A DNA stretch of 64,000 bases from Psammoneis japonica. Taxonomy: Eukaryota. Location of the stretch: positions 124,001-188,000 of the forward strand of contig QPGO01000020.1 in the NCBI GenBank assembly GCA_008632985.1, written 5' to 3'. Under the pieces are notes generated by a model, which saw nothing but the letters and a program-made list of their open reading frames with translations, did no database searches and was not told the origin of the DNA. Numbering within the stretch: the stretch's first letter is position 1; each line of letters starts with the position of its first letter. Positions 27,501 to 51,513 of this stretch are shown here, one piece after another. Position numbers and translations under genes: made by a program.

Positions 27501-27527
27501 CAACCCATGTTCAAGCCATCCTCACAG

Positions 27528-30576: not shown

Positions 30577-33345
30577 AAGTGTGCTCAGATTTCAAATTCT
30601 GAGCAATGCAGAAAAGTCAATTGTGAGTGTGGATTCACTGTCACTTTTTGCTGTCACATTGTTGATGCAATCCAGGCAATGAATGCACAAATTAATTTTG
30701 CACTCTGTCCTTGTTCTGAACTTTGATGTGTTGCTGGCTTTTCTTGACATGTGACAACAAGAAAAGCGTGCTTTTGTGCATCATGGCCACAAGCTTTGAA
30801 GTGCATGTTCACACCTTGATTGAGCTTGGGGAGCTTGATTTTGAAAGCAGCAATTTGTTTGACTTTTGTGATTTTGCATCGATCAAAAAATGGTCCTCAG
30901 CTGAGTTGAGTTAATGTTCAACGTGTTTCAAAGCACAAAAATTGATGAAACAATTTGGGGTTGTGGTTTCACAGGGAGTGCTTTGTGCCACATGGACATT
31001 GGCAAAACAATTTGAGGACTGTGGTCTTGCAGTGCTTTGTGCCGCCCACAGAGATGCAAAATCACAAACAGACAAACAAGCAGTGACTGGGTTTGCCAAT
31101 TTCCAAACTGTAAAAATGAAGATCGCAGCACTGCCTGACAACCAAAACCAGAAGAAAGAAACAAGAAGTGACTCCTCTCTTTGCCCTTGAACATGCAGAG
31201 ATGAGCATGGGCCAAAGATTTGTGGAAAACAAGGGGTTCTTGAATGCACAAAATGAGAAGAGAGTTGATGAACCACTCTTGTTTAGAACCTTGAACACTC
31301 AAATGGCATTTGTGGTTTGACCACAACACAGCTGTTTGAGAAGCTGATGGCATTTTTCATGACTTGCAGCTCAAGGCATGTTGGTGCATGATCACACATG
31401 CAGCAGCACCTTTGGAGCATGCCACTTGCCAGAACAAACAGTTCTCTGTGCTCAGGCTTTGTCCATCAGCCACTCCCGTGTCACAAAGATATCTTTTTTG
31501 CTGGACCTGCTGCTTCCATCAAGATGAAGTTTAGAGTCCAGGCCATTCCCCCAACCATTGACAAAACAGCTCCTGCAAAACCTTTCTGTCTGTTGCCCCT
31601 CCCCCCTCCCCTGCAAAAAGCAGCTCTTGAGAATGACAGTGCCACCCAAATGCTGGGTGTGGCAGTTGAGGCTGTTTTCCAAGCTGCCAGCTGAGACATC
31701 AAACCTGGGGGCTGTGAGCACTCCTGGAGTCACAAGACATGTGGCAACCGGCCCATGTTTCTGATGATGGTGGCAGCACTGAGCTCTTCCTGCACAGCTT
31801 CTCAGCAGTGCACCTGGACCTCCAGAGTGCCAGCCTGGCTCACAACTCATTGGAGTTGCCCCCTCCTTGCTGCCATGATGGCACTTTGTGTTGTCAAGAG
31901 AGCACAAGCAAGCTGGCTGGACTGCTCAGCCCCACACACCACAACCTCTTACAGAACAGTGCCAGCTTGAGGGTTGCCACTGCTGCAAAGATCACTGGCC
32001 AAAGCCAGAGATGGCAGGTGCTCCTGTTGGTGCCCCATGCTGCAGCAGCTGCAAAGTGGTTTGCAAGCCTGCTCAAGCTTGTTTGCCAGACTGTGTGGGG
32101 CTGTTCACTTTGAATGAAAAGCACAAAAATGTTGTTGTCAAACAGGCCCTTCTGTCATGTCCAACATTGCCTCTGCCTGTCCAGTGTGCAAATGCATGAG
32201 TTGCCTGCCCTCAGCTTGCCTCAGCAGCACACTTGTGCAAAGCAACAGAGCTGATTTCGCTCTGTCAACCCCTTGATGGAGATGCAACCAGAGAAATTGT
32301 TTTGTTGCATGGTGGTGACAGCAAGAGTTCCCCCCTTGTCATTGACACACAACCCTGCTCATTGCTGCAAACAGGAGAGCACCTGTTTTTGCTGGCCAAT
32401 GCATGATGTGAGACAACAACAAATGCTCCCAAGCAACAGCCCCTTGGAATTGCTTCTCACATTGAGCTGGGTTTGACTTGTGACATGTCAAAAAAGCAAG
32501 TGGGAAGCTCAGCGGCATTTTGCCAGTCACAGACAAGCACAAAAGCTCAGCGGCATTTTGCCAGGCCACAGACAAGCATGAAAGTTTGTCATGTGCCCAG
32601 CCAAGGCACTGGCACATTGGGTGCACCACACAGTTGGAGGCAAGAAGCATGACACCATTTGCAAATCAAGCAACATGCTCCCAAAGTGCACCTGACCCAT
32701 GAGCAGCTGAAAGCCTCCCTCGGCAAAGAGAGCAGTGGCATCTTGGAGGCACAGCCACCCTGGGCAACAAAGAGCCAACATGCCTCTGTCCCTGCTTGTG
32801 TGGTTCAAAGCAAAAAAACTCTTGGCAAGGTCAGGTCCAGGAGTCATTGAGCATGCCAAGCACTTGACCTGAAATGCACCAGCGGTGACAACTCTCTTCT
32901 GCTCACGGTGCTGTGACAACTCTCCTCTGCTCACAGTGCTGTGCAGCACCCGCTGGTCTTTTCTCAAAAGCTTTTGCTTGCCAGCAAAAGGTCTGAAGCA
33001 AGCAGCCAAGCTTGCAAGTTTTTATTTTCCCCAGCCATTCACAAGTGCAGAGCCTTTGAGTCAATGTGTGGTGCAGCTTGAGCAGCCAAACCACACTGCA
33101 AGAGGAGAGCACCTGCTGGGGGGCAGGGCAAAGGGAGCTGGTGCAGCTGGTGCCCTGGGCTTGGCTCAAAGCCAGTCTGGGGTGCTGGACTCAGCCTGGC
33201 AGCACACACCACTCTCTGTGTCACATGGTCACCCTGCAGCTGCAGTGTGCACCGATGTGTCTGCAGCAATCACCCCAGATGACAAAGAAGAAGCCAATGA
33301 CCATTGAATCTCTGGCCCCATGCTTGCACACTGAACACGGTCAAT
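30520..33345. repeat. Copy A of a ~2.6-2.8 kb diverged duplicated segment (fully TpA-mutated)
   Basis: Colinear with 33750-36270 (shared anchors tgacttc.agccaaagt, cagatttcaaattctgagcaat, acgtgtttcaaagcac, gagcctttgagtcaatg, ctgcagcaa..accc). Confidence 0.75.
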
Positions 33346-33390
33346 TTTTGGCCAGTTCGCTCCTTTCCCCCCTTTTCGGTAAAGATTTCA

Positions 33391-33748
33391 CAGTGCCACC
33401 GAAAAACTCAAAAACTGACATCATGTCGGGTAAGTAAAGTAGATTTTGGCCATTTTACGAGAAAAATGAAGTAGATTTTTTACTTGTTTCTACTGGCTTT
33501 CTACAGGTAATCTCAGCATAGTCTGAACGTCGCTCCGAAGAATGCAGAAAAGCACAAACAACCTACCTGTTCTGCACAGGGTCTTACTCGCGCGATAACG
33601 CGCATGCCCACCAAGATTTTCTTGCACTGGGAGCTCGTTTTCTTACAAATAAGTAGCTTTCAGGTAAGGGGAAGTAGATTTAGTAGATTTCGAGCTATTT
33701 ACCAAGAAAACGTCATGATGTCAGTCTTTGATTTTTTCGGTGGCACTT
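33391..33748. mobile_element. MITE / non-autonomous DNA transposon with ~34-bp terminal inverted repeats (Tc1/mariner-like ends)
   Basis: agtgccaccgaaaaactcaaaaactgacatcatg (33392-33425) is the reverse complement of 33714-33747 with 2 mismatches. Begins CAGTG; no convincing coding content. Confidence 0.75.
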
Positions 33749-33749
33749 T

Positions 33750-36270
33750 GTGGCTGGTTAACGACAAGCCCATAACCAGATCTCTTTATCTGACTTCGAG
33801 CCAAAGTAAGCTAAATGGTTAGTGTAAATCGTTAAGTGCCATTTCCACTTCGACACAAAGAAAGCTAAATGGTTAGTGTAAATCGTTAAGTGTCATTTCC
33901 ACTTCGACACAAAGAGAGCTAAATGCTTGACGGTAGTGGTCAGATTTCAAATTCTGAGCAATACAGAAATGTCAATGATGAATTAGGATTTTCGATCGCT
34001 TCTGCCGTAAATATCATTACGCCAATGCCACTAATGAATCCACAAATGAATTTGTATTCCATCCTTTTCCTGAACTTTGATCTGTCGGCATTTTCGATAC
34101 GAGTACGCGATGACAACAATAAAGCATGCTTGTATGTGTCATGGCCATAAGCTGTGAGGCGTACCGTCACATTTGGATTGAACTCGGGGATCTTGATGTC
34201 GAAAATAGCCATTTGTTTGACATTCGTGATTTTTCATCGCCCACAAATTGGGATTTCAACTGAGTCGAGTTGATGTTGGACGTGTTTCAAAGCACTGCAT
34301 TTGATGAAACAATTGAGGGCTCTGGAATTATGGCATTAATGCCATGGAGACTTAAAACAGTAAATGGGTTGACAATCAAGCAGTGATCGTGCTTGCCAAC
34401 ATTTCCAAACATGTGACAACAAAAATTGCATCACTCAACAACAACAACCAACAACCCCTCAAGAGAGAAACAAGAAAAGTGATTCCTCTTTGCACTTGAA
34501 TTAAAAGAGACAAGAATGCACAACAAACATTTGAGAAGGACAAGAAGCTCTTGAGTGCATGAAACAAGAAGAGAGTCAATGAATCGCTCTTGTTTCGAAC
34601 CTCTTGCCCTGTTCTGTTCATCATGGTGGCAGTTGGTTGAAAGGTTGGTTGTGGTTTTTTATGCGACTTGCAGCTTGAGGCATGTTGGTGCATGGACACA
34701 TGGCCCATGTGTGGTGTGTCACCTTTGGAATGTGCCACTTGTGGGGGTTGAGTGGACAGCTCTCTGTGCTCAAGCTTTGTCGGCCAAATGCTCCGTCAAA
34801 ATCCAGATGCTGCCCCATCTCACCCGACCATCAACAAAAAAGTTCTTGCAAAATGCTGTTGCCTGTTTCCCTCTTCCTCTGCAGAGCAGCTCTCTCAGTG
34901 ACAGCACTGCCCACATGCCAGACTGTGCTCAAGAATGCTTTCCAACCTGCCAGCCAAGACACCCAACTCGGGGCTGTGTGGGCTCGAATCTCTCTCAAGA
35001 CAAGCTGACATTTCTGCCTGGCACTGGTGGCAATGCTGAGCCCTCCTTCCTGTTTGACTTCCCAGGTGGTGTGTCCAGACCTTCTGTGTGCTAGCTCAAC
35101 CACAAGAGTCACTGTTTTTGCTGGCTTTGTTGGCAGGATGTGCCAAGGCTGCTCTGGCCATGTGTGCCTGGCTGGCACCACAATGCAAGGACAGTTGCAA
35201 CAGCACTTTCTGCTGTCAGCAAAGAGTGTGAGCTGGCTGGACTGCCCAACCCCACACTTCACAGCTCATCAGCAGTTGCTTCAAATCAAGTGCCAACTTG
35301 GGGTCAACTGCACCTGACTGGCTGCAATGCAAAGACAGCCATGGCAGCACTTTGTGACAACAAAGAGAGTGTGAGCTGGCTCCAAACCCCACACTTCACA
35401 GCCCCTCAGCACTGGCTCCCAATCAAATGCAAACTTGGGGCCAATGGCCATGAAGCCATCATTGCATCCGCTGCTGTGCCTGGCCCCTCACACACAGCTT
35501 TGCACAGGGTCAACATGTGTGGCCTTTGCAAGATGGGCCCCTGGCTGACTGCTGACTTCTCAGCCACGGCTTGCAACAAGCTGCTCCAATGCAGACCATT
35601 GTGAAGTGAACGAAGATCACTCAGAGTTGGCTGCTGTCCTGGGGCTTCATTCAAAGCTGAGCTGGGCTGCTTGGCTCCTTGGTGTGCGGCACATGCTTGG
35701 CATCACATTGTTGCCAAGCAGCCACATGGCATGTGCCCACCATTTGTGCCTGCAACAGCACCCCCCAGCCACAAAGAAGCCAACAAAAACTTGAACCTGC
35801 TTTTTTAGTTGAAGAAAGAAGAAACTGCCAGCGAAATTGGGTTCAAGATTTGCTGGCAATGCCATGTGGGCAACCAAAGAGAGGTGCCAAAAGTGGCTGT
35901 TCTTGCTCATTTCTCAAGAGGAGCTGCACTCATGATGCAGGGTCTGAAGCAAGCACCAGTCAAGATGACAGTTTTTTCTCTCTGCCCCACTTGAAACAGA
36001 GCCTTTGAGTCAATGCGATGCTCCTTCAACAACTGACGCACACTGGGAGGAGCAGGAGCTGGAGCCAGGGCAGCTGGCCTGGCAGGGCTTGGCTGACAAC
36101 CAAGCTGGGCTGCTCAGCTTGGTGGCACACACTCAGTGTCACATTGTCATCCTCCTGCAGCTGCGGTGTGCCCCACTCTTGCTTTTTGCACCTGCAGCAA
36201 CCACCCTGGACCAAAAGAAGCCAGCGCAACTCTGGCCCTGGCTGCATGGTCAATTTGTGTGTGTGTTCAA
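33750..36270. repeat. Copy B of the duplicated segment (unmutated to ~34370, mutated beyond)
   Basis: See copy A. The unmutated part carries a short minus-strand ORF 33940-34212 with normal Tyr content. Confidence 0.75.
33808..33925 (+). repeat. Tandem repeat, 2.2 x 54 bp
   Basis: aagctaaatggttagtgtaaatcgttaagtg.catttccacttcgacacaaaga occurs at 33808 and 33862. Confidence 0.9.
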
Positions 36271-36985
36271 CTGCAATGTGCAGCTGCTGATGAGAGTCAA
36301 TGTGTCACGGCGATGTGTTGCAGCCTTTAAATGTCACAAAGGGCGTGACAACAATGACCTTTTGTCTGCATGCATGCTGCATTGTGAATTCACAGCGGAG
36401 TGGTTCATCGCAACCATCAGGCAGGAGGCCAGGGGTTCGAAACCCTGAGTGGGAGTTGTCTGCAGCAACGTTGATCACTGTCGAACGCGCAAAAACTCTG
36501 TGCAGTTCTGTGTGTTCCTTCGCACGCACCCACACTGTTCCGCCAAAACCATGCAGTGTCAGCGCACGTTGGCAAAGAGCCACATGGACGCGTGACACAT
36601 GGGGAGGAGTGCAACACACAGCTGCCAACAAGAGTTGATGCATCACGGCGACGTGTTGCAGCCTTTAAATGTCACAAAGGGCGTGACAATGACAACCTTT
36701 TGTCTGCATGCATGCTGCACAATGGTCAACTCCCCTCCTTTTTTCCCTTTTCCTTCAATCGGCCACGAACATGAAAAAATTGCCCCCTTTTCCTTCGTGC
36801 GGCGGCCGGCACACCCGACCTCACACGCACCGGGAACATGAAAAATTTGCTTGCATCGCACGCAGGCCGCAGAAGCCGCGCAGGAGATTGAAGATGATAA
36901 AAATGGCGATTGACAGCGCTTTCTCCTCCGCATTTCGCACATTTGCTGTTTGCACAATCGTTCTCTAGAGCGCACAGCCCATTCC

Positions 36986-38298
36986 ATGGCAACAATGACA
37001 AAGCATCGAGGCGGTGCGTTTGGCTTTCAAGTTCTGTTGAGGCTGCATGGGTCAGCACTGTTCAAGGCTGCAGGTCCTGCCTTGATCGTGATGGTGTTTT
37101 TCATCATCTTTTTCCATTTCTTCAACCTGCATGACAACGGAAACAGAGTGTTTGATCACCCGCATCCGATGGGAGCACTGATTGCCTCCTTTGCCTTTCT
37201 GCTGACATTCAAAACTTCCTTTTCTTGTCACCGCATGAGCAGGCATTGGGTGTGGTGCTTTTGTTGCGCAGACTTGAGAATGAACTCGGAATGCATTGAA
37301 AGTTGAAGGCACTTGCATCCATTTTCATCTTGCCGCTGTCCTCTGCATCTCTGATGTTGGGTGCATCATTGCTGCAGCATTGGGAAGCAGGTGAGCATGA
37401 GGCCGTCAATCGGAAACCCACGGCACAATCGCTCACAGTGCTGTGTCTCCTGCAGCGACTGTCGTTCATCAAATGCACTCCAAATGGTTGGATGTTGGTG
37501 TGGAACTTGCAGCATTTCATTTGCAGTCAGACAGACACATGCAGCCTCCATCCTTTGGGCAATTTCCACAGGCAACCTCTGTCAAACAGGAGCAGGAACG
37601 ATTGAATGAAATGACGCGACAAGATTTAGAAGACCACCTTGACGAAATTGAAAGCATGCAGGGGCATGATGTTCAATTGTCGCTGCGGCATCGTGTGAAG
37701 AAATCTTTCAGAGGAGTGCGATTCTCCTCACGACAAAGACAGCTGCAACAACAGAGACCTCCACAAGTCATCGTCGCAAAAGCATCTGACCGAAACGAAT
37801 CTCTCGAGTCCCTGTCAATGCGAGGGCCCAAAAACAAATGCTCCAATGCAGAGACCAACACAGAGTGTCAATGCACCGACAAGGAAACCGCGAAGGACTG
37901 TCGGCAATCCCATTCAAAGACAGCCACAACACATCAAGCGACGAATCCAGAATGTTGACGACGACACGAGTCACTCAACGGCTTTGCAACTTTCCACATG
38001 CAGATCAGTCATCCGGAGCATGGCTCCAACGGAGCGATTCGACCCTTCCTTGTTGCTCCAAGAAGCAGCTCATTTGATGTCGTTGCTGTCTGCTGTTGCT
38101 TTGACAACCCTTCGAAATGATTTGGAACAAGCAGAAAGCCCACTGTCCAAGTTTGAACCAGGCACGCCGTGGCCTCATGTTGATCCTGACGATCACGACG
38201 CTGACATTCGTGGGGGGTGGGAATCGACTCACCGCAGCCTGGTGGTCTTGCAGCATCCATTTGGTCACACACGCACAGCACGGGCGCGGACTTTGTAC
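36986..38298 (+). pseudogene. Bestrophin-like (RFP-TM chloride channel family) gene, 5' part, interrupted by copia and hypermutated
   Basis: GFQVLLRLHGSALFKA, HPHPMGALIASFAFLLTFKTSFSCHR, HWEA, HQMHSKWLDV, SLLLQEAAHLMSLLSAVALTTLRND. The frame continues across the element once one TSD copy is removed. Confidence 0.8.
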
Positions 38299-38521
38299 CG
38301 AGTGAAATCCGATGCATCAGAGTCTGTCTGGTGCACTCTACAAGTTGAAGTGGCGGGACTGTGACGTGGTGTCGGTGGAAAAGTGACCATGACCATCGAT
38401 TGGTCTCACTTGTTGCATCCGTTGTAGTTGCAACAGGCCTAGAAGCATCTCATCGGTTGTGTTTGCGTTGTCGCACTAAGACTGTGAGTGGCTGAGCCCA
38501 CTCGGCAGCTAGATTTACTCG
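38299..38521 (+). repeat. 5' LTR (CGAGT...ACTCG)
   Basis: Same length as, and alignable without gaps to, 44600-44822. Confidence 0.95.
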
Positions 38522-38811
38522 CTTCATCAGAGCCAAGTCGTTGGCTCAAGTTTAGTTTGACGAAAAGCGTTGAACAACTGCAGAGAGACGGTCGTGCCAT
38601 TGTGGCAGGGTTGTGGCGACGAATGCCGGTCGATCGAAGGGTGCATGATGATCATCATCACCTGGCATCAGTGAATGCACGAGCAGTGAGGAGACATGGC
38701 CAGTCTCCATGCTTCTAATGGCTGTGTGTTATCGTCAACACAAACTGAGACATCCTTTTGAATTTATGATTTCTCACATGACTCTGTTTTCCCACTGGTG
38801 TGGGTGCCACC

Positions 38812-40239
38812 ATGGCGGCTGCTCCTCCGGATCCTGTCGAGACAGCGCTCGAATGGATCGGATTTGTTGATCCAGCTCAACGAGTCCCGCTCATGGCGGA
38901 CTTTGCGTCTTTTGACGATTTAGAAGACCTCAAGGAAGAGGACATCGATTCTCTTGCGTCTTCGTGCGCCAGGAGGACGGTTGCTGAAGGGCGCATTCAT
39001 TTTGGTTTGGCCCGCAGTCGTCGACTCAAAGCTCTCATACATTGGGTTCAGGACTTTGGTCGCGTGAGCGAGAATCCTACTCTGGATGGGCTTGATCAAG
39101 CCACTTTCCGTGCTGCTCTCCAGACGGCACTTAGTCGCGCCGAGATCCGCTCCCAGACCAAGGCTGCTGCTGACTCTCTTAGTAAAGAGGCGTCGCCCGG
39201 AATGTTAGAGAGCGAAAAGGATTGGGTCAAGTGGAGCACCGGTTTGACGAACATGCTTGGCATTGTGCTGGGAGTTTCTGGCGCACCGTTGGTGCATTGC
39301 ATTCGTCAAAACGATGCACCCGAACCTCAAGGCCACAACACTTTCGTCCAGAAGTGCATTGCATGTGCACCCCTCCAAGGCCCAGTTTTCGAGGCTGACG
39401 CTCGTACGGTTCATCTGCTCATCGAGTCCCCAACCACGGGCACACCTAGTGAGCAATGGTTGAAGGACCACAAGAATGAACAGAACGGACGAGTTGACTT
39501 TAGGGCGTTGTGCGACCATTGCCAGGGAGAAGGCAATGCCTCCCGCCGCATCTCTGAAGCCGAGCACATGGAGAATGCCCTTCATTGCAAGAGTGAACGC
39601 GCTGTGCCGTTTGAGTCATTTGCAAATGAGCTCCAAGAAATGTTCAACATTTTTGACGAGAACGACGAACCAAAAACGGAGGCCCAGAAGTTGCGGATCC
39701 TTTTTGAGAAGACGCAGCACCAATCACTACAAGCAGCAGTTGAAACCTTGAAGGCGCAGAATGAGTTTGGAGGAGGCATCACGTTCACCACGGCGGCCAA
39801 TCATCTTGCCGCCAAAGTCGCCACCCTTCCAGAGACGATTGCGCATCGTCGTGCGATTGCCGCAGTTGCCTCTGGAGGAGGAAGAGAGGGTGGTGCCATT
39901 TACAATGAGGATGGATCCATCAACACTGGATGCCACAAAAACTGGCACCAGTTGAGCAAGGAGGACAAACAGAAGGTCATCGACGAGCGCATGCGTCCAG
40001 GTGTCGCCAAACAACCTAAACCAACCAAACGCCGTGCTGCATCCGTCAAGTCGCTCAAGAAGAAGAATCGGAAGCTGTCGTCGCAGCTTAAAGAAGCGAA
40101 CCGCAAAATCTCCGCCCTGAACACTGATGTCAGTGCCGACTCTGGCGATGATGAATCAGGGGCTGGCGGCAGAGACGGAGACAATGCCGGAGACGCATTC
40201 GGTGGTCGCAGCGAAAAGCGCCGAGGAAAGCAGAAATGA
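38812..40239 (+). CDS. gag: Copia Gag (hypermutated but open)
   Basis: Diatom copia Gag motifs (RRLKALIHWVQDF, G.SGAPLVHCIR, GPVFEADARTVH, NGRVDFRALCDHCQGEG) and a basic C-terminus. Confidence 0.85.
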   Translation: MAAAPPDPVETALEWIGFVDPAQRVPLMADFASFDDLEDLKEEDIDSLASSCARRTVAEGRIHFGLARSRRLKALIHWVQDFGRVSENPTLDGLDQATFRAALQTALSRAEIRSQTKAAADSLSKEASPGMLESEKDWVKWSTGLTNMLGIVLGVSGAPLVHCIRQNDAPEPQGHNTFVQKCIACAPLQGPVFEADARTVHLLIESPTTGTPSEQWLKDHKNEQNGRVDFRALCDHCQGEGNASRRISEAEHMENALHCKSERAVPFESFANELQEMFNIFDENDEPKTEAQKLRILFEKTQHQSLQAAVETLKAQNEFGGGITFTTAANHLAAKVATLPETIAHRRAIAAVASGGGREGGAIYNEDGSINTGCHKNWHQLSKEDKQKVIDERMRPGVAKQPKPTKRRAASVKSLKKKNRKLSSQLKEANRKISALNTDVSADSGDDESGAGGRDGDNAGDAFGGRSEKRRGKQK

Positions 40240-43200
40240 CTGCCAAGCTGGACCCTGCTTGGTTGCATCATAAACTTCTTGTTGTGGTTGCTGCAATGGG
40301 GCGGGGGACAGCCGCATCGATCAAAGGAGCAGTGTCCACGTGCCTGTGTCAAATGCATCTGTGAGGTTGTCACCTCGACGAGACGTGTGTCGGCAACGCG
40401 GTCTGACACCACACGAATCACCCACATCCGTGATGTGAGCAAGGCACAGCATGGGCGTCTTGAAATGGATTCGCATGCTGACACCACTGTTTTTGGTCAA
40501 AACTTTACCCTCTCAGGTTGTTCTGGACGAGAATGTGACGTGTCGCCTTTTAATGAGGGACACGAGTCCATCAAGAGTGTCCCAATTGTCTCGGCAGCCA
40601 CGGCGTGGACTTCACCGACATCGGGAGCAACTTTTGTTCTGGTCTTCCACGAGGGCTCATGGATGCCGGAGTCCATGGAGCACTCACTGGTTAACCCAAA
40701 CCAGCTGCGGCACTTTGGTGTTAAGGTTCAGGACAACCCCTGCTCCGATTCGCCACTGCACATCCTCACTGAGGACAGATCTTTCATGATGCCGCTTGAA
40801 GCTGTGGGGACCAATGTCGTTGTGGCAACTCGTGCTCCTGCAGAGCAGGAATTGCACGAATGCCCCAAGATCCAGATGACCTCCCAACAACCTTGGGATC
40901 CACAGACCGTCAAGTTCAAATCTGTTGGAACTCGACGATCTGCGGAGGAGGAAATGGAGCTAGTTCGGTCAATTGCGACGATCCACACCAATCTAACACA
41001 CGAGTTCAAAGCTGATCCTGCCTGCAGCAACCCCCAATCCGGGGACTGTTGCGATGAGCGATTCATTTGTGGAGTCGATCAAGTCCAATCAAGGCTCATG
41101 GCTGCCGTCAATGTGGAAATGGAGCCAACAGTCCAGATCTCCGCCACGGAAACAATCGGCGAAGGACCTGAAGACTTGGCACTCCCGAAGACGTTCATGT
41201 CTGAGGAGAGGCACAGTGACGCATCGGCTGCTGACTCAAGTGAACAATGGTGCATGGGACTCAAGCAAGCAGCAAGTGCGCTCAAGAAGACTGCACAAAA
41301 GCTCATCAGGTCAGCGTTGATGCCTGTGGGCCGGCGCTGTCGGGCCGATCGGATGTTCACAAAGCCCAGGTTACGGGGTGAATGGGCAACCGACACGGCA
41401 GACGGCAAGGTGGTTTCGCTGGAGGGCAATCGACATGCCCAGATCTTTACAAACAAGCAACACTTTGCTGCGATCTGTCCCATGGACAAGAAGAGCAAGG
41501 CTGGCGAGGCTCTCAAGACGTTTTGCCAGGAATTTGGCGTGCCAGAGAAACTCCTGATGGACGGATCTAAGGAGCAAACAAAACCTGGCATGGAGTTCAT
41601 GAAGACCGTGCGCAAGGAGGGCACAGATTGTCACATCATCGAACCTGATCGACACAACCAGAATCCTGCAGAAGGAGTTGCACGCGAGGTTGGACGTAAG
41701 TGGTTCCGTGTCATGGTCAAGAAGCAAGTGCCGCGGCGACTGTGGGGCTGCGGATTTACATGGACATGTGAGACCATGTCTCGCACGTTCCTTCGAGCAC
41801 ATCATTTGGATGCAGGAGCACCACTGGAGAACGTTCTCGGAGAGACCGTGGACATCTCGGAGCACCTCGACTTTGGATTTTACGATTGGGTCTGGTGCAG
41901 GGAGAATGCCGGTCTGGGGGACGAGAAGCTTGGTAGGTGGCTTGCTGTGTCTCACAGAACAGGGAGTCTCATGTCGCATTACGTTCTGACACAGACAGGC
42001 AGTGTTATTTCGAGAACTTCCGTCCAACGAGTCACCAATTTGGAAGCCGCCACTCAAGAGAAAAAGGCAGAGTTCGACAGTTTTGACGAGGAGATCAAGC
42101 GACGGTTGAAGGAGCAAGATTTCCCCGATGACGAGGATCGTAAGATCAGTCCCGAAGACTGGAAAGACTGCCTTGGATACGACGATGAATTCCTCGATGA
42201 GCATGATCGTGTCATGTCCTCAGAGGAGGTGGCAAATGACGACGACGACAAGAAAGACGAGGAAGCCTCACCGGAGGCGGCGGACTGGGGATGCATTAAC
42301 ATGGAGGTTGCGCTTCCACGAGATGACAATGGTCCTGAGTTTGCTCGTGTCACGAAGAGGTTGAGAGATGCTCAGATCGACGAGGACGGAAACCAGCACG
42401 TCTCATTCGATGAGATCGTTGATTGCCGCACCAACGGGGACGTTCCTGAATCCGAATTCTTTGAGACCGAACGAGGCGTTCGGAAGAGGCGCAAGACTGC
42501 CAAAGGATGGGAACTTTTGTTCCAATGGAAGGATGGAAGTGCGACTTGGATCGACTTGAAGATTGCGAAGGAGAGCTTCCCAGTCCAAGTTGCCGAGTTC
42601 GCCATTCAGCGCAAGATCTCGGGTGAGGCAGCGTTTGCTTGGTGGGTTCCTCATGTCATGAAAACCCACAAGCGTTCCATTGCGAAGGTCAAGTCGAAGT
42701 GCTGGCTACGAACACACAAATTTGGCATGCGGATCCCGAAGAGTGTCAAGGAGGTGATCCAGATCGATTGCGCAAATGGCAACACACTGTGGTGGGACGC
42801 CATTTGCACGGAGATGAAGAACGCACGGGTTGCTTTTGACAAGCATGAAGGGGAGCTTAAAGACATGGCGCCTGGTTTCCAGGAAGTGAAGTGCCACATG
42901 ATTTTTGACATCAAGTTGGGAGAAAACTTCTGCCGCAAAGCTCGCATGGTGGCTGGAGGCCACACCACTGAAACCCCCGCACACATCACTTGCTCCTCTG
43001 TCGTCTCTCGGGATTTGGCAAGAATTGCACTGACGCTTGCTGCGCTCAATGACTTGCAAGTCTTTGCATGTGACACCCAGAACGCCTGCCTCACTGCCCC
43101 TTGCAGGGAGAAGATTTGGACCAGAGCAGGGTCTGAGTTTGGCAAAGATGAAGGTTGCATCATGATTGTGGTCAGGGCCCCACACGGATTGAAGAGCTCC

Positions 43201-44439
43201 GGAGCAGCGTTCAGGGCTTTTCCAGCGGAGACGCTTTATGATCTAGGGTGCAAACCGAGCAAGGCTGATCCGGATGTGTGGATGAGACCTGCGGTGAAAC
43301 CCGACGGATTCGAGTGCTGCGAGTGCGTTCTAGTTTACGTGGACGACGTGCTGTCGATTGGCCACAAACCCATGAAGACGATGGATGGCATCAGGTCCAA
43401 GTTCAAGCTCAAGGGTGATGAGGCAGCCGAACCGGATTCCTGCCTCGGTGCTGCGCTCTCCAAGATGACTTTAGCCGATGGGACCACCTGTTGGGCAATG
43501 TCTGCGGAGAAGTGCTGCAAGTCCGCTGTCCAAAATGTAGAGGACAGGCTTGGCAAGGAGGGGAAACGTCTGCCTGGCAAGGCGACAACCCCATTGAGCA
43601 GTGGATGCAAACCCGAGTTAGATGCTGCTGGCGAGTTGGACGCTGAAGGACTTCACTGTTGTCAAGAGCTGATTGGTGTGCTGGTTTGGGCGGCAGAACT
43701 CGGCAGAGTGGACATCCATTTGGAGGTTTCGTCAATGTCTGCTCACCTCGCTCTCCCTCGCATTGGCCATCTGGAACAGGCACTGCATGTCTTTGCATGC
43801 CTTAAACAGGTTCCAAAGCGTCAAGTGGCATTCGATCCGGCTCATCCCAAGATCGATGAATCACGATTCGTGAAGTGCGACTGGCACGACTTCTGCCGAG
43901 ATGCAAGAGAAGCCATTCCAACAAATGCACCGCCAGCTCGAGGTAATGCAGTGTCGACACATTGTTTTGTGGATGCCAACCATGCCGGAAATGTTGCCGA
44001 TCGCCGCAGCCATACAGGCATCTTGATGTTCATTGACCGGGCACCCATTGTGTGGCACTCGAAGCGTCAGAATGCCGTGGAGGCTGGCACATTTGGAGCA
44101 GAGATCGTTGCACTCAAGAATGCCATCGAGCTCGCAGAGAGTCTACGACACAAGCTTCGAATGTTTGGAGTGCCGATCGAAGGGCCAACAAATGTCTTCT
44201 GTGATGATGAGGCCGTCCACAAGAATTGCTCTGTTCCTGAGTCTACACTCAAGAAGAAGCATCACTCCATTGCGCGTCACCGTAACCGCGAAGCTGTTGC
44301 TGCGGGGACTGTTAGGATTGCAAAGGAGGGAACAGAGACAAACCTTGGCAATCTATTCACGAAGGTCATGTCGTCTGTCAGGCGAAATTTTCTGTTAGAC
44401 AAGTTCGCGCATCAGGATGGATGCGTGAAGCGGTGGTGA
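40240..44439 (+). CDS. pol: Copia Pol (protease, integrase, RT, RNase H), open but Tyr-depleted
   Basis: EMDSHADT (PR), HNQNPAE (IN), KARMVAGGH, GLKSSG, YVDD (RT), FVDANHAG...DRRS (RH). Only 5 Tyr counted in the 1386-aa ORF. Confidence 0.95.
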   Translation: MPSWTLLGCIINFLLWLLQWGGGQPHRSKEQCPRACVKCICEVVTSTRRVSATRSDTTRITHIRDVSKAQHGRLEMDSHADTTVFGQNFTLSGCSGRECDVSPFNEGHESIKSVPIVSAATAWTSPTSGATFVLVFHEGSWMPESMEHSLVNPNQLRHFGVKVQDNPCSDSPLHILTEDRSFMMPLEAVGTNVVVATRAPAEQELHECPKIQMTSQQPWDPQTVKFKSVGTRRSAEEEMELVRSIATIHTNLTHEFKADPACSNPQSGDCCDERFICGVDQVQSRLMAAVNVEMEPTVQISATETIGEGPEDLALPKTFMSEERHSDASAADSSEQWCMGLKQAASALKKTAQKLIRSALMPVGRRCRADRMFTKPRLRGEWATDTADGKVVSLEGNRHAQIFTNKQHFAAICPMDKKSKAGEALKTFCQEFGVPEKLLMDGSKEQTKPGMEFMKTVRKEGTDCHIIEPDRHNQNPAEGVAREVGRKWFRVMVKKQVPRRLWGCGFTWTCETMSRTFLRAHHLDAGAPLENVLGETVDISEHLDFGFYDWVWCRENAGLGDEKLGRWLAVSHRTGSLMSHYVLTQTGSVISRTSVQRVTNLEAATQEKKAEFDSFDEEIKRRLKEQDFPDDEDRKISPEDWKDCLGYDDEFLDEHDRVMSSEEVANDDDDKKDEEASPEAADWGCINMEVALPRDDNGPEFARVTKRLRDAQIDEDGNQHVSFDEIVDCRTNGDVPESEFFETERGVRKRRKTAKGWELLFQWKDGSATWIDLKIAKESFPVQVAEFAIQRKISGEAAFAWWVPHVMKTHKRSIAKVKSKCWLRTHKFGMRIPKSVKEVIQIDCANGNTLWWDAICTEMKNARVAFDKHEGELKDMAPGFQEVKCHMIFDIKLGENFCRKARMVAGGHTTETPAHITCSSVVSRDLARIALTLAALNDLQVFACDTQNACLTAPCREKIWTRAGSEFGKDEGCIMIVVRAPHGLKSSGAAFRAFPAETLYDLGCKPSKADPDVWMRPAVKPDGFECCECVLVYVDDVLSIGHKPMKTMDGIRSKFKLKGDEAAEPDSCLGAALSKMTLADGTTCWAMSAEKCCKSAVQNVEDRLGKEGKRLPGKATTPLSSGCKPELDAAGELDAEGLHCCQELIGVLVWAAELGRVDIHLEVSSMSAHLALPRIGHLEQALHVFACLKQVPKRQVAFDPAHPKIDESRFVKCDWHDFCRDAREAIPTNAPPARGNAVSTHCFVDANHAGNVADRRSHTGILMFIDRAPIVWHSKRQNAVEAGTFGAEIVALKNAIELAESLRHKLRMFGVPIEGPTNVFCDDEAVHKNCSVPESTLKKKHHSIARHRNREAVAAGTVRIAKEGTETNLGNLFTKVMSSVRRNFLLDKFAHQDGCVKRW

Positions 44440-44599
44440 GTTTCTTCCCTGGTGAGGGTTTACACCATGCACAAAGGATTGGCGGCTTTTCCCTGGCAAG
44501 GGTTTTACGTCGATTAATGAGTCAAGATGTTTGAGCTAGATCACTGATGCAGCATTGGGTCGAATTGTGCCTTACGAGTCAGGTACATTTCGAGGGGAC

Positions 44600-44822
44600 C
44601 GAGTGAAATCCGATGTATCAGAGTCTGTCTAGTGCGCTCTATAAGTTGAAGTGGCGGGACTGTGACGTGGTGTCGGTGGAAAAGTGACCATGACCATCGA
44701 TTGGTCTCACTTGTTGCATCCGTTGTAGTTGTAACAGGCCTAGAAGCATCTTATCGGTTGTATTCGCGTTATCGTACTAAGACTGTGAGTGGCTGAGCCT
44801 ATTCGGCAGCTAGATTTACTCG
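44600..44822 (+). repeat. 3' LTR, retains most TpA
   Basis: Matches the 5' LTR and is preceded by a polypurine tract. Confidence 0.95.
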
Positions 44823-45858
44823 GTACAATGCCGCTCGGCCTTTTCGAGTAGTGGGGGGAGGTATGTTGTTGTTTCGAGCGCGGAAACAATGAGTCCGAGC
44901 TTTCACGTGTTGTTTTGTGTATCCTCCACTTATTTTCTATTTTAGTCTCCGATGTTGAAATTGAGCAGCTTCAAATGGCTCGGGGGCCTTTGGCGAAGGT
45001 GGCACTTTGTACCATGTAGTTACAAGAATTCATTGCTCGAGAGCATTTGCATAAAGGGTTGGGCAGCGTCGGTGCTCCGATTGTCAGTCGAATGTTTCAA
45101 TGCACAAGTGATGGAATGATTGGGTGAGTATGATAAGGTGTACAATTTTGCTAGGTTGGACATCAACATGTTGTCAGGTCTGACTCTTCATTGATTCTAC
45201 GCTTTCTCCAACTCTTTCACAAACGCTTCCCCAAACGCTTTCCGAAACTCCAACAGGTGCAATCAAGCCCGCAAGATTGCCTGCATTCCTTTTCCGTTCC
45301 CACACGCACAAATTACGTCTCTTTACATCATTATGATGGTGGTCTTTGTGCCAATGCTGATGCTCTCATACATCAACAACATTGTCTTTGGCGCGTTCCT
45401 CAACTTTCTTTACAGTCCTTGCTTTCACTGGTCTTTACGAAGTTTCCCGTGAACTGGAGAATCCGTTTAAGAACGTGCCAAATGACATTCCTCTAAATAA
45501 CTTTCAGGCCCAATTCAATGAAGCCCTGATGACCATGTACAACGGATACCATCCAGACTCTTTTTGGGTTGTTCAAGAAGTGAGTGGCCCACTTCCATCT
45601 ATGATCTTCGAGGATCCTGAGCAAGAAGAAAGGTTAGAGGCGGAGGAAAAGGAAGAATCGATACACAGAGAGGAGGGAAAGCTTCCGGTTTTGCGTGCCG
45701 ACGATCGTCACGAACCCCCCCTATCGTCAGTGGACGACAGCTTGTTGACTCATGATTCTTCCGGGGAAACGTATCGTGGCGCTCCATTGGTTGCTGGAAC
45801 TTTAGAGGCCGAAGTTTCAGCGAGCGAAGGCAACAACGATGAAATCAAAATGAGCTGA
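44823..45858 (+). pseudogene. Bestrophin-like gene, 3' part
   Basis: YNAARPFRVVGG, ARGPLAKVALCTM*LQEF (premature TAG), NQARKIACIPFPFPHAQ, GLYEVSRELENPF.NVPNDIPL. Introns at ~44861-44945 and ~45124-45257. Confidence 0.85.
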
Positions 45859-46295: not shown

Positions 46296-46763
46296 CTAGA
46301 ACTCTGCTTGTCCGTCTTGCGTCACTTTGAGAAGCTCTAAGGTGAAGACGAGAACAGCACCACCTGGGATCTGCCCCCCAGCGCCACGGTCGCCGTAACC
46401 TAACTCAGAAGGGATGTAAAGCTCCCATTTTCCACCCTCTTTCATGAGCTGCAATGCCTCCTTCCAACCGTTAATAACTTGGTTCGGAGCAAAAGTGAGC
46501 GGCTCCCCGCGTTTGTATGAGCTGTCAAATTCAGTACCATCGATCAAAGTTCCTGCATAATGGCACAAGCACGGCGTGTTAATCTTCGGCGACGGACCGG
46601 TTCCAGCACGAAGTTCCTTGTAGAGAAGGCCCGACGGAAGCTCCACAACCCCGTCCTCCTGCTTCTTAGCTGCTAGAAACTTCAGTCCCTCAGGATTCGT
46701 CCCAGCATGGACCAAGCCAAAAAGGGCAACAGTAACGAACATAAGCAAAGAGCGAATCATCAT
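46296..46763 (-). CDS. FKBP-type peptidyl-prolyl isomerase (Mip/FkpA-like) with signal peptide
   Basis: LPSGLLYK, HYAGTLIDGTEFDSSYKRG, VINGWKEALQLM, YIPSELGYG, VLVFTLELL. Ends QAEF, a possible ER-retention variant. Confidence 0.95.
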   Translation of the reverse strand: MMIRSLLMFVTVALFGLVHAGTNPEGLKFLAAKKQEDGVVELPSGLLYKELRAGTGPSPKINTPCLCHYAGTLIDGTEFDSSYKRGEPLTFAPNQVINGWKEALQLMKEGGKWELYIPSELGYGDRGAGGQIPGGAVLVFTLELLKVTQDGQAEF

Positions 46764-47022
46764 ACAGACAGAAGAGAGGATTAAGCGAGACGTATGAATG
46801 AGAGATGGAGAGATACGTACAGTATCTATTAGCTCTAGCTAGAGAGTAGTCTCTTCGAAGCAGACAGCAGACAGCCGAAGATTGAAGACTGAAGACCGAT
46901 CGATCTCGTCTCTCGTCGTCGAGCAAAGAATTCATCATCGATCGCGTCGCGTGAGGCAGGAAGATATCCGAGCTCGAAGCTCGATCTCTGGAGATCTGAC
47001 GTGCGTGCGTTTCATTCGGGAT

Positions 47023-47360
47023 TGTTTTGGCCTGAAGGCTATGAGATAACGGTTGTTCCCAAAGTGAATGTTATGGGGCAATTGGTGCTCCATAAGTGAA
47101 GGGGTCCTTTATCATCAAAAACGATTCTGATTGGCTGGTTGTCTGCCGGTCATAATGAAAAAGTCACACTAAACTCACGATGTGTCCCACGTGTGCGTGG
47201 TTGGTTCGGTTCTCGGAAAGCATCCATAAGACTGTTTGGTGATGTCTTTGACATTCTGAGGGCACTGGTGTAATGCCGGGAAATCCACTCGAGGATCTTC
47301 TCACAATCTTGATTGGGTTGCTGTTTACCACTGATTTATCTTATCGAGACACTTTTAGCA
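47023..47360 (+). repeat. 5' LTR of second copia, retains many TpA
   Basis: Alignable to 55093-55413. Confidence 0.9.
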
Positions 47361-50300
47361 CGTTGTCAGAGCCACACTCTAACTGTCTGAGACCATGGCA
47401 TTTGCTGCAGCACAAACCACCTCTTTCTTCGAGGACGATGACCAGGTGGGTTTGCCCAACGCAGCTCGTGTGCAGCTGGTGGCGGAAGGACTGGACCAAG
47501 TGAGCGACCTCACTGACTTTGATGAGGATGGTCTGAACCAGATCTTTGAGAACCTCAAGCGTCCTGGAGGCACCGTTCCACACCCCAATCCTGGTGCAGC
47601 TGCTGGAGCGGTCATTCGGACACCAGCCTTTGTCGCAGGTGCGAAGAGCATGGCGCGCCTCAAGGTTGCAAAACAGGCAGCGCAGTGCCACAAAACTGTT
47701 GGTCGTGAATTGTTGGCAGCTAACATGCACTGAAATTTTGTCATCAAGAACTTCCAGGAAGCGTGGAAGGCTTTGAAAGAAAGGAAGAGCGAAGATGATC
47801 CTGAAGCACCAAGGACCACCAAGTCGCTTCCGACTGTGAAGTGGACCGAGGCCTTTCGTGATCACCTGCAGCATGTGATCGGGACTCGGGCTGTCCCACT
47901 GTCATGCGTCACCCAAGAAACGGTTGCAGCTCCTGCGGCGGCTCCTGCACTGGCCATGAACCAACCTCACTTGGACGAACACAGTTCTCTTGAAGATGAG
48001 CCAGTGGCATGAGCCAGTCACACTCACCCTTTGTTTTGAGAGGACAACTCTGCAGTGTGTTGTTCTCTAGAAGAAGCCACCCGCAGAACCTTCTGTGTGG
48101 CTTCAATCAAGCCCTTTCAATGCAGGAAGGATGGAAGGGGTGCATGGACTGCACCAATGACACAACATGCTGGCGAGGATAAATGGGCAGCTGAGCTCAA
48201 GAAGCAGGAGGACTTCATCCACAATTGGAAGTGGAAAGCCCAATCAAATTTCTCCCTTGACCACTTTGTCTCTCAGCACCACAATGTCTTTGTCTCCATG
48301 CAGCAATGTGCTGAGTGTGTCACCTTCCAGCTCCCGAACGAGCACACAAGAGTCGCGCACCTGTTGGATGCCATCAAGACCGCTGATGCTCCACTGCAGG
48401 CCGCAATGGCTCTGGTCCACAACGACACAGGACCAAATGGAAAATGCAGTGACTTCAAGGCAGCGGCAGCACACATCTTGTGCCCCATGACCCTGTGGCC
48501 AAGAAACGAGCTGCCAAATGGCCTCACGCTGAAGTTTCTGGAATTGACTCCAGTGCCATTAAGTCTGGCATTGGCAAATCCGGGGTGGAGCTGCGCCATC
48601 ACACTCATTGTGAGTGTCAGCAATTGAACTCTGACCAGAAGGCCAAACTGAAAGAATGGCGCTCCTTGGAGGGCTCTTCTGCCATGAAGAAAAAGGAGGG
48701 CAAGCACAAGACACAACCAGCTGGTTCGCAGAAGAAGATCAAGAAGATGATCTTGGAAGCTGTGGCATCTGAGCTAGCTTCTCGCGAGAAGAAAGATGAA
48801 AAAGCCAACACCAGGTCTAACAATGCCAAGGTGCGCACTTGCCTCCTTTCCCTTGTTCAGGCGGCATGAAACTCGGCTCCGGCTGCCGTGTCGCTGCCTC
48901 CTCTGCCACCACCGATGGTGACACCGGCCCCGGCACAAGCCTCGGCGGTTCAGTTCAAGCCACCCTGGGTGATGTTGCAGTCGATCCTGCGGCGTGCCAG
49001 CAACAAGAAATGAAACGTCGGGACGGTGCTGCACTCCAATGTCTCCTTGCTTGAGGGGAGAAAATGTGCCATCTGTGCCATGGAATCACAGTCGCTGATT
49101 CCCAATCATTCTGTTCTAAAATTTGTTGCTCGCTGTGCAATCTCTGACATCACTGCAGAGACAAGTGAAGAGACTTGCAATGAGAGTGAAACGCGCACTG
49201 AACTGGATTCTCATGCGAACATGGTTGTGGTTGGCAAGGGGTCCCATGTGTTGAACGACACTGGTTGCACAGCTCAAGTGTCAGTCCTTTCAGTCCAGAG
49301 TGCGAGTCGATGAAAGATGTGAGAATGGTCAATGCTCTCTTGGCATGTGACTGCCCGCACTCCCTGAAAACTTGCTTGCTTGTTGGTCCTGCACAATGCC
49401 CTGTACATTCCGACAATGGACCACAATCTGTTGCCACCCTTTGTGCTGCATGAAGCAGGGGTGATTGTCAATGATGTTCCCAAGATGCAAGTCCAAGGAC
49501 GGGAACAAATGGAGGACAATCATGCCCTTCTGTTCCCGGATTTGAAGGTTACAATCCCACTGTCCCTGTGGGGTGCATTCTTGCACTTTCCATCTGGACG
49601 ACCCACAATGGAAGAGATGCAAGACACTGATGACGTGCTGGTCCTAACTCCATCTGGGCACTTGTGGAATCCTCACTTGGATTCCTGTGCTCGGAATGAG
49701 GAAAGCATGTTGGACTGGGAAGGGAACATGTCGGACAAATGTGGTCAGATCAGGATTCTGGTTGAAGACCTGCCTGACAAAGACGAGGAATTACAATTGT
49801 CCTCAATGATGTCGAGTGTTGAGTCTGGGATTGTTGACTCCAAGTTGTCAGTTGTTGATTGCTTTGAGGCTCATGATGACCTGAGTGGATGCACAGGAGT
49901 CATGCGGGAGGCTGACAACTCCCATGCCGTCATGTGTGACATCTTGGCCACTCTTGATTGCATCTCACTTGCCGAAGGTCCACAGGACCGCCGCGACATC
50001 GGCGTTTTTGCATCCTCTGTAGGATCCACGATGGCGGGACTTCAAGATGACTCAGATCGGGGTGACAATGTTGATTTTGATGTTTTTGAGGATGTCCAAC
50101 TTGAAGACATTGCAGACAATCTTGTGGAGCATTTTGAATCTGATCCCAAGGTCCAAGTTGGAGGAACTGCTGCCTCCAAGTCTAAGGGTGTGTCTCCAGA
50201 ACACTTGTCCAAGGTCTGGAGAACAAGCACCAAGGATGCAGAGCAGACTGTGGACAACACCTTTCAACTTCTTCAACGCACCCAAGACCCAGCTTTCTTG

Positions 50301-51513
50301 AGGAACTGTTCAACAAACAACAGGATGCTGTGGTGTTGATGAACTGCCCAGCATTTCTTCATGGACACTTTCTTTGCAAGTGAGAAGGCTGGGAAGTCCA
50401 TGCGAGGACACTCATGCATGCAGTTGTTTGTCACTGACAAGGGCTTTGTTTGTGTGGTGCCCATGCATGCTCAATCAGAGACACCTCAGGCACTCAAGAT
50501 GTTTGCCAAGGAAGTGGGTGCACTGGAGGCGATCACATGTGACAGTGACCCAGCACAGAAGTCTGATGAGATTCAACAATTTCTTCACTCCATTGAGACC
50601 AGCCTTGGGCTGCTGGAGGAAGGAACACCATGGTCAAACCATGCTGAACTGCACATTGGCTTGTTCAAGGAGGTGGCACGCAAGGACATGAAAGAGTCCT
50701 TGTGCCCTTTGCCTTTTTGGGACTGCTGCTTTGAGCGACAGGCAAGAATTGACAACTTGATGGCCCAGAACCTGTTCCAACTTGAGGGGAGGAACCTGCA
50801 CTTCTCTGTGACAGGGGACAAAGGTGACATCTCCAACCTTGCTCAATTTGGATGGCATGACTGGTGCTTCTTCCGTGAGCACACCAACCCCTTCCCATTT
50901 GATCGCGAAGTTCTCGGGCATGTGCTGGGCCCCACCAAAGGAGAAGGAAACAACATGGCTCAGTGGGTGCTGAAGGGCAATGGCAATGTTGCACCACGAC
51001 GTTCCCCCTCTCAGTTGCTGAGATGAACAGTGACACTGAGAAATGCAAGCTTGAGATTTTTGACCAGTGCATTGAATCAAGCTGGGGCTCTGCAGCTTGT
51101 CCTGTGTCCTCTGCAGGCAAGCAGTTCATTCCGCATGGGGATGCACACGAAAAGCCCAGAGATCTCCTGAATTTGATGACCCAGTTGACGCTGCTGGGAA
51201 TGCCATTGACCCAACCCCCTTGCATGACCAGCTCATCCATGCTGAGATTGCTCTGCCTCAGGGTGACAAGTTGAGGCAGGCCCGTGCAATTGGCCGATCT
51301 GTGGATCCAGATGGTTGATCGGTCGGCACGTGCAATGACAACCCAATCATGAACACTTTGGTTTACAACGTCGGGTTTCCTGATGGGAGGTGAAGGAACA
51401 TGCCGCCAACGTCATTGCTGAGAACTTGCTTTCTCAAGTTGACTCAGAGGGCTGCACTCTCAACCTTTTTGACAGCATGCTTGATTTTGCCAAAGATGAT
51501 GCAGCAGTGACCA

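Follow-up and report, generated by a model that had tools for sequence, protein, structure and literature searches.

In a 64-kb stretch of Psammoneis japonica DNA (contig QPGO01000020.1, positions 124,001 to 188,000 of the forward strand; referred to here as the window, from the first base of which all positions are counted), TpA dinucleotides (TA) were lost first and CpG dinucleotides (CG) later. The element at the center of this analysis is a young Ty1/copia (CoDi-like) long terminal repeat (LTR) retrotransposon (38297 to 44827, + strand) consisting of an LTR pair, gag, and pol. Its interior had an observed/expected ratio (o/e) of 0.19 for TA (bootstrap range, 0.14 to 0.23; 61 TA) and 0.84 for CG (0.76 to 0.90; 362 CG), compared with 0.60 to 0.80 and 0.90 to 0.98, respectively, in the host stretches of the window, and neither gag nor pol contained an internal stop. 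An initial annotation of this DNA had described the element as TA poor, CpG rich, and open in its reading frames, and all three properties were borne out. The TA>TG/CA changes evidently occurred in the chromosome, after integration, to judge from the LTR and flank comparisons given below. We consider it likely that a chromatin-domain-wide process in silenced, transposon-rich chromosomal DNA converts TpA to TpG or CpA.

Organization of the element

The 5' LTR (38297 to 38526, + strand) is partly mutated (6 TA left; TA o/e, 0.45) and is a direct repeat of the 3' LTR (44598 to 44827, + strand), which is essentially unmutated (16 TA; TA o/e, 1.04). Between them lie an open gag open reading frame (ORF) with 1 Tyr (38812 to 40239, + strand; 475 amino acids [aa] counted from the ATG, 485 codons stop to stop) and an open pol frame with 5 Tyr (40240 to 44439, + strand; 1,324 aa from the first ATG, 1,399 codons stop to stop). 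The initial annotation had reported 5 Tyr in a 1,386-aa Pol and 1 in Gag; the Tyr counts were right, and the length needed correction to 1,399 codons.

The sole separation of gag and pol, which share the same frame, is a single TGA (40237 to 40239). A database search with pol yielded 675 relatives, the best 120 of which were 53 to 62% identical over 98 to 99% of the query, and all of these 120 contained PF07727. Because 119 of the 120 listed relatives had a pol-only length (about 1,100 to 1,400 aa), the gag-stop-pol layout is the family norm and not the result of a premature stop. The other one, P0012 (1,838 aa), is a gag-pol fusion to whose N-terminal part the gag ORF aligns; it is without about 41 residues around the gag-pol junction. 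The layout suggests stop read-through or a similar mode of expression at the TGA in the copia lineage of this element.

TpA loss precedes CpG loss

When the window was divided into 128 segments of 500 bp, both ratios were high in 58 segments and low in 52, while the other 18 were TA-low/CG-high and none was TA-high/CG-low. Thus, a joint scaling of TpA and CpG losses, which the initial annotation had named as the contrary case, was not seen. The blocks of the window formed a series, with TA and CG o/e of 0.19 and 0.84 in the element, 0.02 and 0.75 in the adjoining half of a host gene, 0.07 and 0.38 in an older copia element, and 0.04 to 0.05 and 0.09 to 0.14 in relics. As the initial annotation had stated, the older relics were short of both dinucleotides, namely, the old depleted blocks at 4600 to 10000 (TA, 0.05; CG, 0.14) and 22900 to 33100 (TA, 0.04; CG, 0.09).

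Between the LTRs of the young element, 9 of 15 TA sites and 2 of 14 CG sites differed, compared with 3 of about 172 positions elsewhere in the repeat. By these small counts, TA loss per site was about 6 times CpG loss and roughly 50 to 100 times the background. The 18-to-0 split among the discordant segments and the LTR proportions together uphold the earlier proposal that the two losses are separate and that TA loss is the faster. Regarding transversions, the LTRs of the older copia (9 of 325 positions) were about three times as diverged as those of the young element (2 of 230).

Mutated and unmutated blocks alike had a summed o/e of TA, CG, TG, and CA of 3.76 to 3.90, which is what a simple conversion of TA and CG into TG and CA would give. 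In the element, the two products were about equal (TG o/e, 1.37; CA o/e, 1.36). On the + strand, TG o/e exceeded CA o/e in most depleted blocks (4600 to 10000, 22900 to 36300, and 47353 to 55087), with examples of 1.95 versus 1.73 and 2.02 versus 1.69, a mild strand asymmetry. The GC fraction was 0.53 (0.534) in the element versus 0.47 to 0.48 in host DNA, and it was back at 0.48 in the relics. Given that GC rises and then returns in this way, old domains are inconspicuous by GC.

Missense damage in open reading frames

Tyr accounted for 5 of the 1,399 codons of pol (0.36%) and 1 of the 485 codons of gag. The best 120 of the 675 pol relatives contained 3.51% ± 0.30 Tyr (range, 2.7 to 4.1%; minimum, 2.70%), placing pol about 10 standard deviations below them. 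None of these 120 fell below 2.7%, contrary to the possibility, raised in the initial annotation, that relatives might be equally Tyr poor. Cys and His were raised in pol (3.72 versus 1.61% and 3.57 versus 2.51%, respectively).

We aligned pol with 60 of the 120 listed relatives (P0001 to P0060). At the 29 columns with Tyr in at least 80% of the 60 relatives, the element had Cys 15, His 7, Phe 4, Tyr 2, and Arg 1 times; i.e., 27 of the 29 conserved Tyr were gone, and the codons at the lost columns were TGY for Cys, CAY for His, and CGT for Arg. Since conserved Tyr had turned into Cys (15) and His (7), the direction of change was from TA to TG/CA. At the other conserved columns of pol, the consensus residue was kept at 544 of 635. 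The conserved columns carried 118 substitutions. A single TA>TG step accounted for 28 of these and a single TA>CA step for 17 (codon borders included); the remainder comprised 9 CpG steps, 41 other single-base changes, and 23 changes of more than one base. Other TA-type missense changes in pol were V>A (to GCA; four times), L>S (to TCA; three times), L>P (to CCA; twice), I>M (three times), and I>T. With 45 of 118 substitutions being single TA steps and the frames being open, these data agree with the earlier claim that such a process acts by missense (Y to C/H, V to A, L to P/S, and I to T/M) rather than by nonsense. The predicted protein of the element, judging by its replaced residues, is certainly inactive although the frame is open.

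The genetic code accounts for the open frames. A>G and T>C changes never make TAA, TAG, or TGA from a sense codon; the most they do to stops is to change TAA to TGA or to abolish them. Of the changes at CpG, CGA>TGA is the only one that gives rise to a stop. Because TA-type A>G/T>C changes make no stops, the frames stay open under dozens of missense changes. In gag and pol, all 25 in-frame CGA codons were still CGA, and internal stops were absent from both frames. On both strands of 22900 to 33100, we counted 29 TAA, 11 TAG, and 530 TGA triplets; TGA dominates the depleted blocks. The 14 stops seen where frames of the older copia were aligned were all TGA, the alignment being too poor to trace their origin from CGA.

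Changes after integration

The comparison of LTRs is premised on the two copies being identical at integration. In the young element, 14 of the 230 positions differed, and 11 of these were TA- or CG-type. Nine sites had TA in the 3' LTR and TG or CA in the 5' LTR, with no site in the reverse direction; the rest were two sites with CG (3') versus TG/CA (5'), one other transition, and two transversions. The LTR pair of the older copia mirrored this arrangement. Its 5' LTR (47018 to 47352, + strand) was spared and its 3' LTR (55088 to 55413, + strand) was mutated; 10 sites were TA in the former and TG/CA in the latter (reverse, 0), and CG was kept in the 5' LTR at 5 sites versus 1 the other way.

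The older copia also contains a 1.4-kb tandem duplicate of the reverse transcriptase region (51514 to 54308), the copies of which are 87% identical. They differed by 31 TG-versus-CA, 41 CG-versus-TG/CA, and 8 TA-versus-TG/CA pairs, in addition to 36 other transitions and 25 transversions. A TG-versus-CA pair means that the same ancestral site was lost in both copies on opposite strands; the two copies were mutated independently.

Contigs from runs X1 and X2 joined position 38289 to 44818, skipping 6,528 bases. They represent a copy or allele without the element that is about 10% diverged and less mutated. Among the 33 listed differences from this element-free copy at 37.5 to 37.8 kb, the window had TG/CA where the copy had TA at 8 sites (reverse, 0), and CG was present in the copy at 6 sites (reverse, 2). 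Furthermore, an X1 contig (word depth, about 63) matched 37626 to 37996 (371 nucleotides [nt]), within the mutated gene half, with 0 differences, thus excluding a consensus error there.

A host gene split by the element

The element interrupts a gene that is probably of the bestrophin family, for which a tblastn search with bestrophin relatives located a hypermutated 5' half (36995 to 38296, + strand) and a 3' half that was not hypermutated (44828 to 45606, + strand). An ORF at 45361 to 45855 had 59 relatives, all with PF25539; those with names included proteins of the diatoms Epithemia clementina and Cylindrotheca fusiformis. In the tblastn comparison of the 59 relatives with the window, the seven listed matched in order, with N-terminal parts at 36995 to 38296 and C-terminal parts at 44818 to 45606. 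The 3' ORF itself scored 22.7 bits against the bestrophin profile PF25539, below the cut-off of 27.

The upstream half retained 2 TA in 1,397 nt (TA o/e, 0.02; CG o/e, 0.75; GC, 0.504), and its 6 conserved Tyr columns contained His 3, Cys 1, Met 1, and Tyr 1 times. The downstream half had a TA o/e of 0.47, a CG o/e of 0.91, and a GC fraction of 0.462. The process is therefore not confined to transposons, as half of a host gene was mutated too. Only the gene half on the heterochromatic side of the element was hypermutated. A Trp-to-stop change at a conserved column of the downstream half marks this copy of the gene as a pseudogene.

Depleted domains and their edges

The 500-bp map resolved four depleted domains (about 4.5 to 10.0, 22.8 to 33.2, 34.3 to 44.2, and 47.4 to 57.0 kb) with edges sharp to roughly 100 to 400 bp. 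TA depletion was thus localized in discrete regions, the remaining window being host DNA at the TA ratios given above. One continuous domain (34400 to 44240) comprises an older relic, the host gene half, the 5' LTR, and the interior of the element; from about 44240, ahead of the 3' LTR, TA density rises. The next domain holds most of the older copia, which belongs to another family (47018 to 55413, + strand) and has broken frames, followed by an old depleted block (55414 to 57000; TA, 0.05; CG, 0.12). Between the two spared LTRs lies a 2.2-kb host island containing the bestrophin 3' half and an FKBP gene (46296 to 46763, - strand; ORF and Pfam evidence).

Repeats in the window allowed edges and duplicates to be compared. 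Of the repeat at 30543 to 31463 and 33893 to 34781, the first copy was mutated, whereas the second was unmutated to about 34.36 kb and mutated beyond. Between 30543 to 30966 and 33893 to 34325, 10 TA and 8 CG sites were lost in the former versus 1 and 1 in the latter. An ankyrin duplicate (57007 to 57590 and 62540 to 63119; 580 nt; 91.7% identical) was unmutated. Given that edges ignore repeat boundaries and that duplicates are spared, the trigger is position and not homology as in repeat-induced point mutation (RIP); it is presumably the chromatin state.

Several further features were observed in and around these domains. The island at 33300 to 34360, between two depleted blocks, had TA and CG o/e of 0.65 and 0.95 and a low GC fraction (0.416); it is an old repeat copy of 30543 to 30966, with the edge at about 34.36 kb inside the repeat. 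The ankyrin duplicate is a partial copy of an ankyrin-repeat gene (61702 to 62874) and begins directly at the border of a depleted domain. The stretch from 29150 to 30582, within the old depleted block at 22900 to 33100, consists of three tandem copies (unit, about 475 bp; 95 to 98% identical) that differ by few TA-/CG-type sites and were therefore duplicated after depletion. The block at 4600 to 10000 includes a decayed ORF (7225 to 8175, + strand; 317 aa; 0 Tyr, 14 Cys, and 17 His) with 104 homologs in public data (best E value, 5.9e-21). All 12 of the homologs scanned were without a Pfam family, and the ORF showed no resemblance to the gag of the element; it represents an unnamed protein family that may be mobile. 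No meaningful Pfam match came from the 49 ORFs scanned in the depleted blocks and the second copia. In a stretch of normal composition lie ordinary intron-bearing host genes, i.e., MatE transporter fragments as separate ORFs and a mitochondrial-carrier ORF (together at 16997 to 18166, - strand, and 19692 to 20231, + strand).

Sequence context of surviving TA

In the saturated domains, 59 of 90 surviving TA lay in the tetranucleotides YTAR (TTAA, TTAG, CTAA, and CTAG), as did 30 of 67 in the element, compared with 196 of 978 in host DNA (Fisher's test against host, p = 1e-18 and 1e-5, respectively). It follows from the survival of YTAR that the reaction is faster where a purine precedes TA or a pyrimidine follows it.

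Family and copy number of the element

Flanking LTRs, gag followed by pol, and an RVT_2-type signal near the cut-off place the element among the Ty1/copia LTR retrotransposons. Its pol scored 30.6 bits against Pfam RVT_2 (cut-off, 31.6), compared with 55.6 to 68.6 bits for four relatives; the initial annotation had anticipated that a mutated copy would keep its open frame, and the signal has sunk to this level despite that frame. No Pfam family matched the gag ORF in the profile scan. When the closest relative (P0001) was used as the query of a feature search, it led to a cluster automatically named "Blackbeard family protein." In the available text of Maumus et al. (2009; PMC2806351), the name Blackbeard denotes a CoDi copia element from Phaeodactylum, a diatom. 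Like the CoDi/Blackbeard Ty1/copia elements of diatoms, the element is a copia-type LTR retrotransposon, and its relatives carry RVT_2; the copy described here is a mutated, dead member.

The summed word depth of run contigs was 805 to 3,693 over the element versus about 63 per single contig in its flanks, which points to tens of family copies with a likeness of at least 85%. Transitions made up 438 of the 525 variant places. A metagenome scan for close relatives returned one locus (n = 1), with 46% identity, a TA o/e of 0.81, and a CG o/e of 0.71. Directly 3' of the 5' LTR (38527 to 38545), the sequence includes TTCATCAGAGCC. Copia elements usually have TATCAGAGC in their primer-binding site, which is complementary to initiator tRNA-Met; relative to this, a putative primer-binding site at 38527 to 38545 may show a TA>CA change. 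The tRNA and Rfam scans of the 64-kb window gave no match.

Proposed process and alternative explanations

In the process that we consider likely, A:T-to-G:C transitions arise on either strand and cease within a few hundred bases of the domain edges. Anything inside a domain is mutated (i.e., the young copia, its inner LTR, and half of the host gene), with YTAR contexts spared longest. The element was killed by dozens of missense changes, and stops can follow via CpG decay (CGA>TGA) and ordinary mutation. By analogy with the proposal for the chlorarachniophyte Bigelowiella natans, the chemistry may be enzymatic adenine deamination in DNA at 5'-TA, targeted to silent chromatin, and CpG loss would probably reflect the usual decay of 5-methylcytosine by deamination, the same domains being methylated.

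Oxidation of the T of TpA to 5-hydroxymethyl- or 5-formyluracil by a TET/JBP-like enzyme, so that it pairs with G and yields T>C, is an unlikely though possible alternative. Oxidized thymines mispair with G, and the 5-hydroxymethyluracil of dinoflagellates favors TpA. Moreover, A>G and T>C are indistinguishable from sequence at the palindromic dinucleotide TpA, and TG and CA products were about equal both by o/e and at conserved pol sites (28 versus 17). However, such a base lacks support in this organism, and the sole paper on the signature (bioRxiv 10.64898/2026.01.13.699255) proposes adenine deamination in its main text, itself without a biochemical test. We give still less credence to a loss of TA before integration, whether by ADAR-like A-to-I RNA editing followed by reverse transcription or by copying of a mutated master. 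A>G with a 5' T does resemble the neighbor preference of RNA editing (U 5' of A) discussed in the same preprint, and a multicopy family could pass on inherited changes. Yet reverse transcription yields identical LTRs, while nine one-directional TA differences were observed; the flanking gene half, which was never reverse transcribed, is even more depleted than the element; the tandem duplicate in the second copia was mutated independently in both copies; and both strands were about equally affected. The data on the LTRs, gene half, duplicate, and element-free copy therefore cannot be explained by RNA editing before integration. As the sole cause, change before integration is refuted by the LTR and host-gene data, although it may have contributed.

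A homology-triggered mutation of duplicated DNA, like RIP with another base change, would fit targets that are mostly repeats and mutation that leaks into adjacent DNA; RIP, too, leaks into DNA adjoining repeats. We regard it as very improbable, because spared and mutated LTRs are repeated to the same extent, 33893 to 34325 holds an unmutated copy of a repeat whose partner at 30543 to 30966 is mutated, a domain edge falls inside that repeat, and the ankyrin duplicate is unmutated. In addition, TpA is the product of RIP but is removed here. An artifact, with modified bases misread in sequencing or polishing, or a composition shaped by selection or codon use, is the least credible explanation. 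Base modifications do cause systematic errors in some long-read consensus sequences. Against this, the high-depth X1 contig reproduced the mutated gene half exactly, and the mass balance of pyrimidine-purine dinucleotides and the one-directional LTR differences are the prediction of real transitions. Codon use is ruled out because the pattern covers noncoding relics.

Several points weigh against a domain-wide, postintegration process. The evidence is standing sequence, with the candidate enzyme and modified base being hypothetical, and the ordering and the domain rule come from four or five blocks of one 64-kb window. Age estimates depended on differences outside TA and CG sites, which were very few (3 in 230 nt and 19 in 325 nt). 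The direction of LTR changes was taken from the coding regions, without an outgroup. The strand-context test was weak: of 91 polarized events, 44 in RTAR/YTAY discriminated the strand rule, and 28 fit a changed A with a following pyrimidine versus 16 for the alternative (p = 0.096). Run X1 may be the source sample of the window and thus not independent support. Some of the interior TA loss may stem from a source copy that carried these mutations beforehand. With 40 of the 529 variant places listed, shared and private changes are not separable, and site 39729 is TA in the window but TG in all contigs compared.

Comparison with known systems

Two integrated viral regions accounted for 231 of the 302 new single-nucleotide mutations in mutation-accumulation lines of B. 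natans, and 230 of the 231 were A>G or T>C, all on TpA (Mettrop et al., bioRxiv 10.64898/2026.01.13.699255, main text). According to the same text, TpA-depleted coding sequences were enriched in reverse transcriptase and DDE domains, and the authors propose an ADAT2-like DNA adenine deaminase. As in B. natans, the changes described here are TpA>TpG/CpA on both strands, at the DNA level, and confined to particular regions of foreign or mobile origin, with long-term TpA depletion and CpA+TpG enrichment in clusters. Unlike B. natans, a rhizarian, the host here is apparently a diatom (i.e., a stramenopile), and the targets are LTR retrotransposons and a trapped host gene half instead of integrated viral DNA. 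Depletion here is near completion (o/e, 0.02 to 0.07), compared with a Rho of 0.45 for the nucleocytoplasmic large DNA virus region of B. natans. The coupled, slower CpG loss and the refractory YTAR contexts also set this case apart from the main text of the preprint, in which "CpG," "flanking," and "diatom" have 0 occurrences. The B. natans mutations were seen de novo, and the activity there is intermittent and differs between lines, whereas the process here is known from the standing sequence of one sample. Within the open full-text literature (subscription journals lying outside it), we found the signature only in the B. natans preprint and none for diatoms. This case is thus a B. natans-type signature in an apparent diatom, and the signature itself is already in print.

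RIP of ascomycete fungi likewise produces heritable, DNA-level, dinucleotide-specific transitions that disable transposons and leak into neighbors. However, RIP converts CpA to TpA and leads to TpA excess, AT-rich isochores, and stops, whereas here TpA is destroyed (0.02 to 0.19), CpA/TpG is raised, and the mutation is stop free. RIP is triggered by duplication; here, duplicates beside the domains were spared. ADAR and APOBEC also cause clustered transitions in retrotransposons, and ADAR, whose substrate is double-stranded RNA, gives A>G with U preferred 5'. Both work on replication intermediates, before integration, so that both LTRs are alike and flanks are untouched, whereas here the LTRs differ and the host flank is mutated; APOBEC3 acting on cDNA gives G>A/C>T and not A>G. 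The CpG decay of methylated transposons (CG>TG/CA) occurs in the same domains here but is slower and does not account for the loss of TA. In diatoms, transposons rank among the main targets of CG methylation (PMC9998398, available text). The terms "RIP," "hypermut," "dinucleotide," and "deaminat" are absent from the available text of Maumus et al. (PMC2806351).

Implications

If the window is from a diatom, a process known from one 2026 rhizarian preprint also works in ecologically dominant, genetically tractable algae. Beyond the main text of that preprint, the present data add LTR retrotransposons and trapped host DNA as targets, edges that ignore repeats, a rate rank relative to CpG, a refractory tetranucleotide for a candidate enzyme to explain, and a reason for the open frames. 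As a tentative extension, which we hold to be possible without favoring it, diatoms and chlorarachniophytes, and perhaps the stramenopile-alveolate-rhizarian lineages at large, may share a chromatin-guided DNA base-editing defense that rewrites every accessible TpA in silenced domains, with the 5'-YTAR-3' blind spot as the footprint of the enzyme. If so, a "stop-free" mutagen would leave transposons that are dead but retain full-length ORFs, so that annotation takes them for intact copies, and because GC would be normal once CpG decay catches up, the domains would escape composition-based detection. Host genes inside a domain would be rewritten at the same speed, so that genes near transposons could die or change very fast. 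In practice, with 11 of the 14 LTR differences being TA- or CG-type, "intact ORF" and "LTR identity" (94% between the LTRs of the young element) are unreliable guides to how active and how old a transposon is in genomes of this kind.

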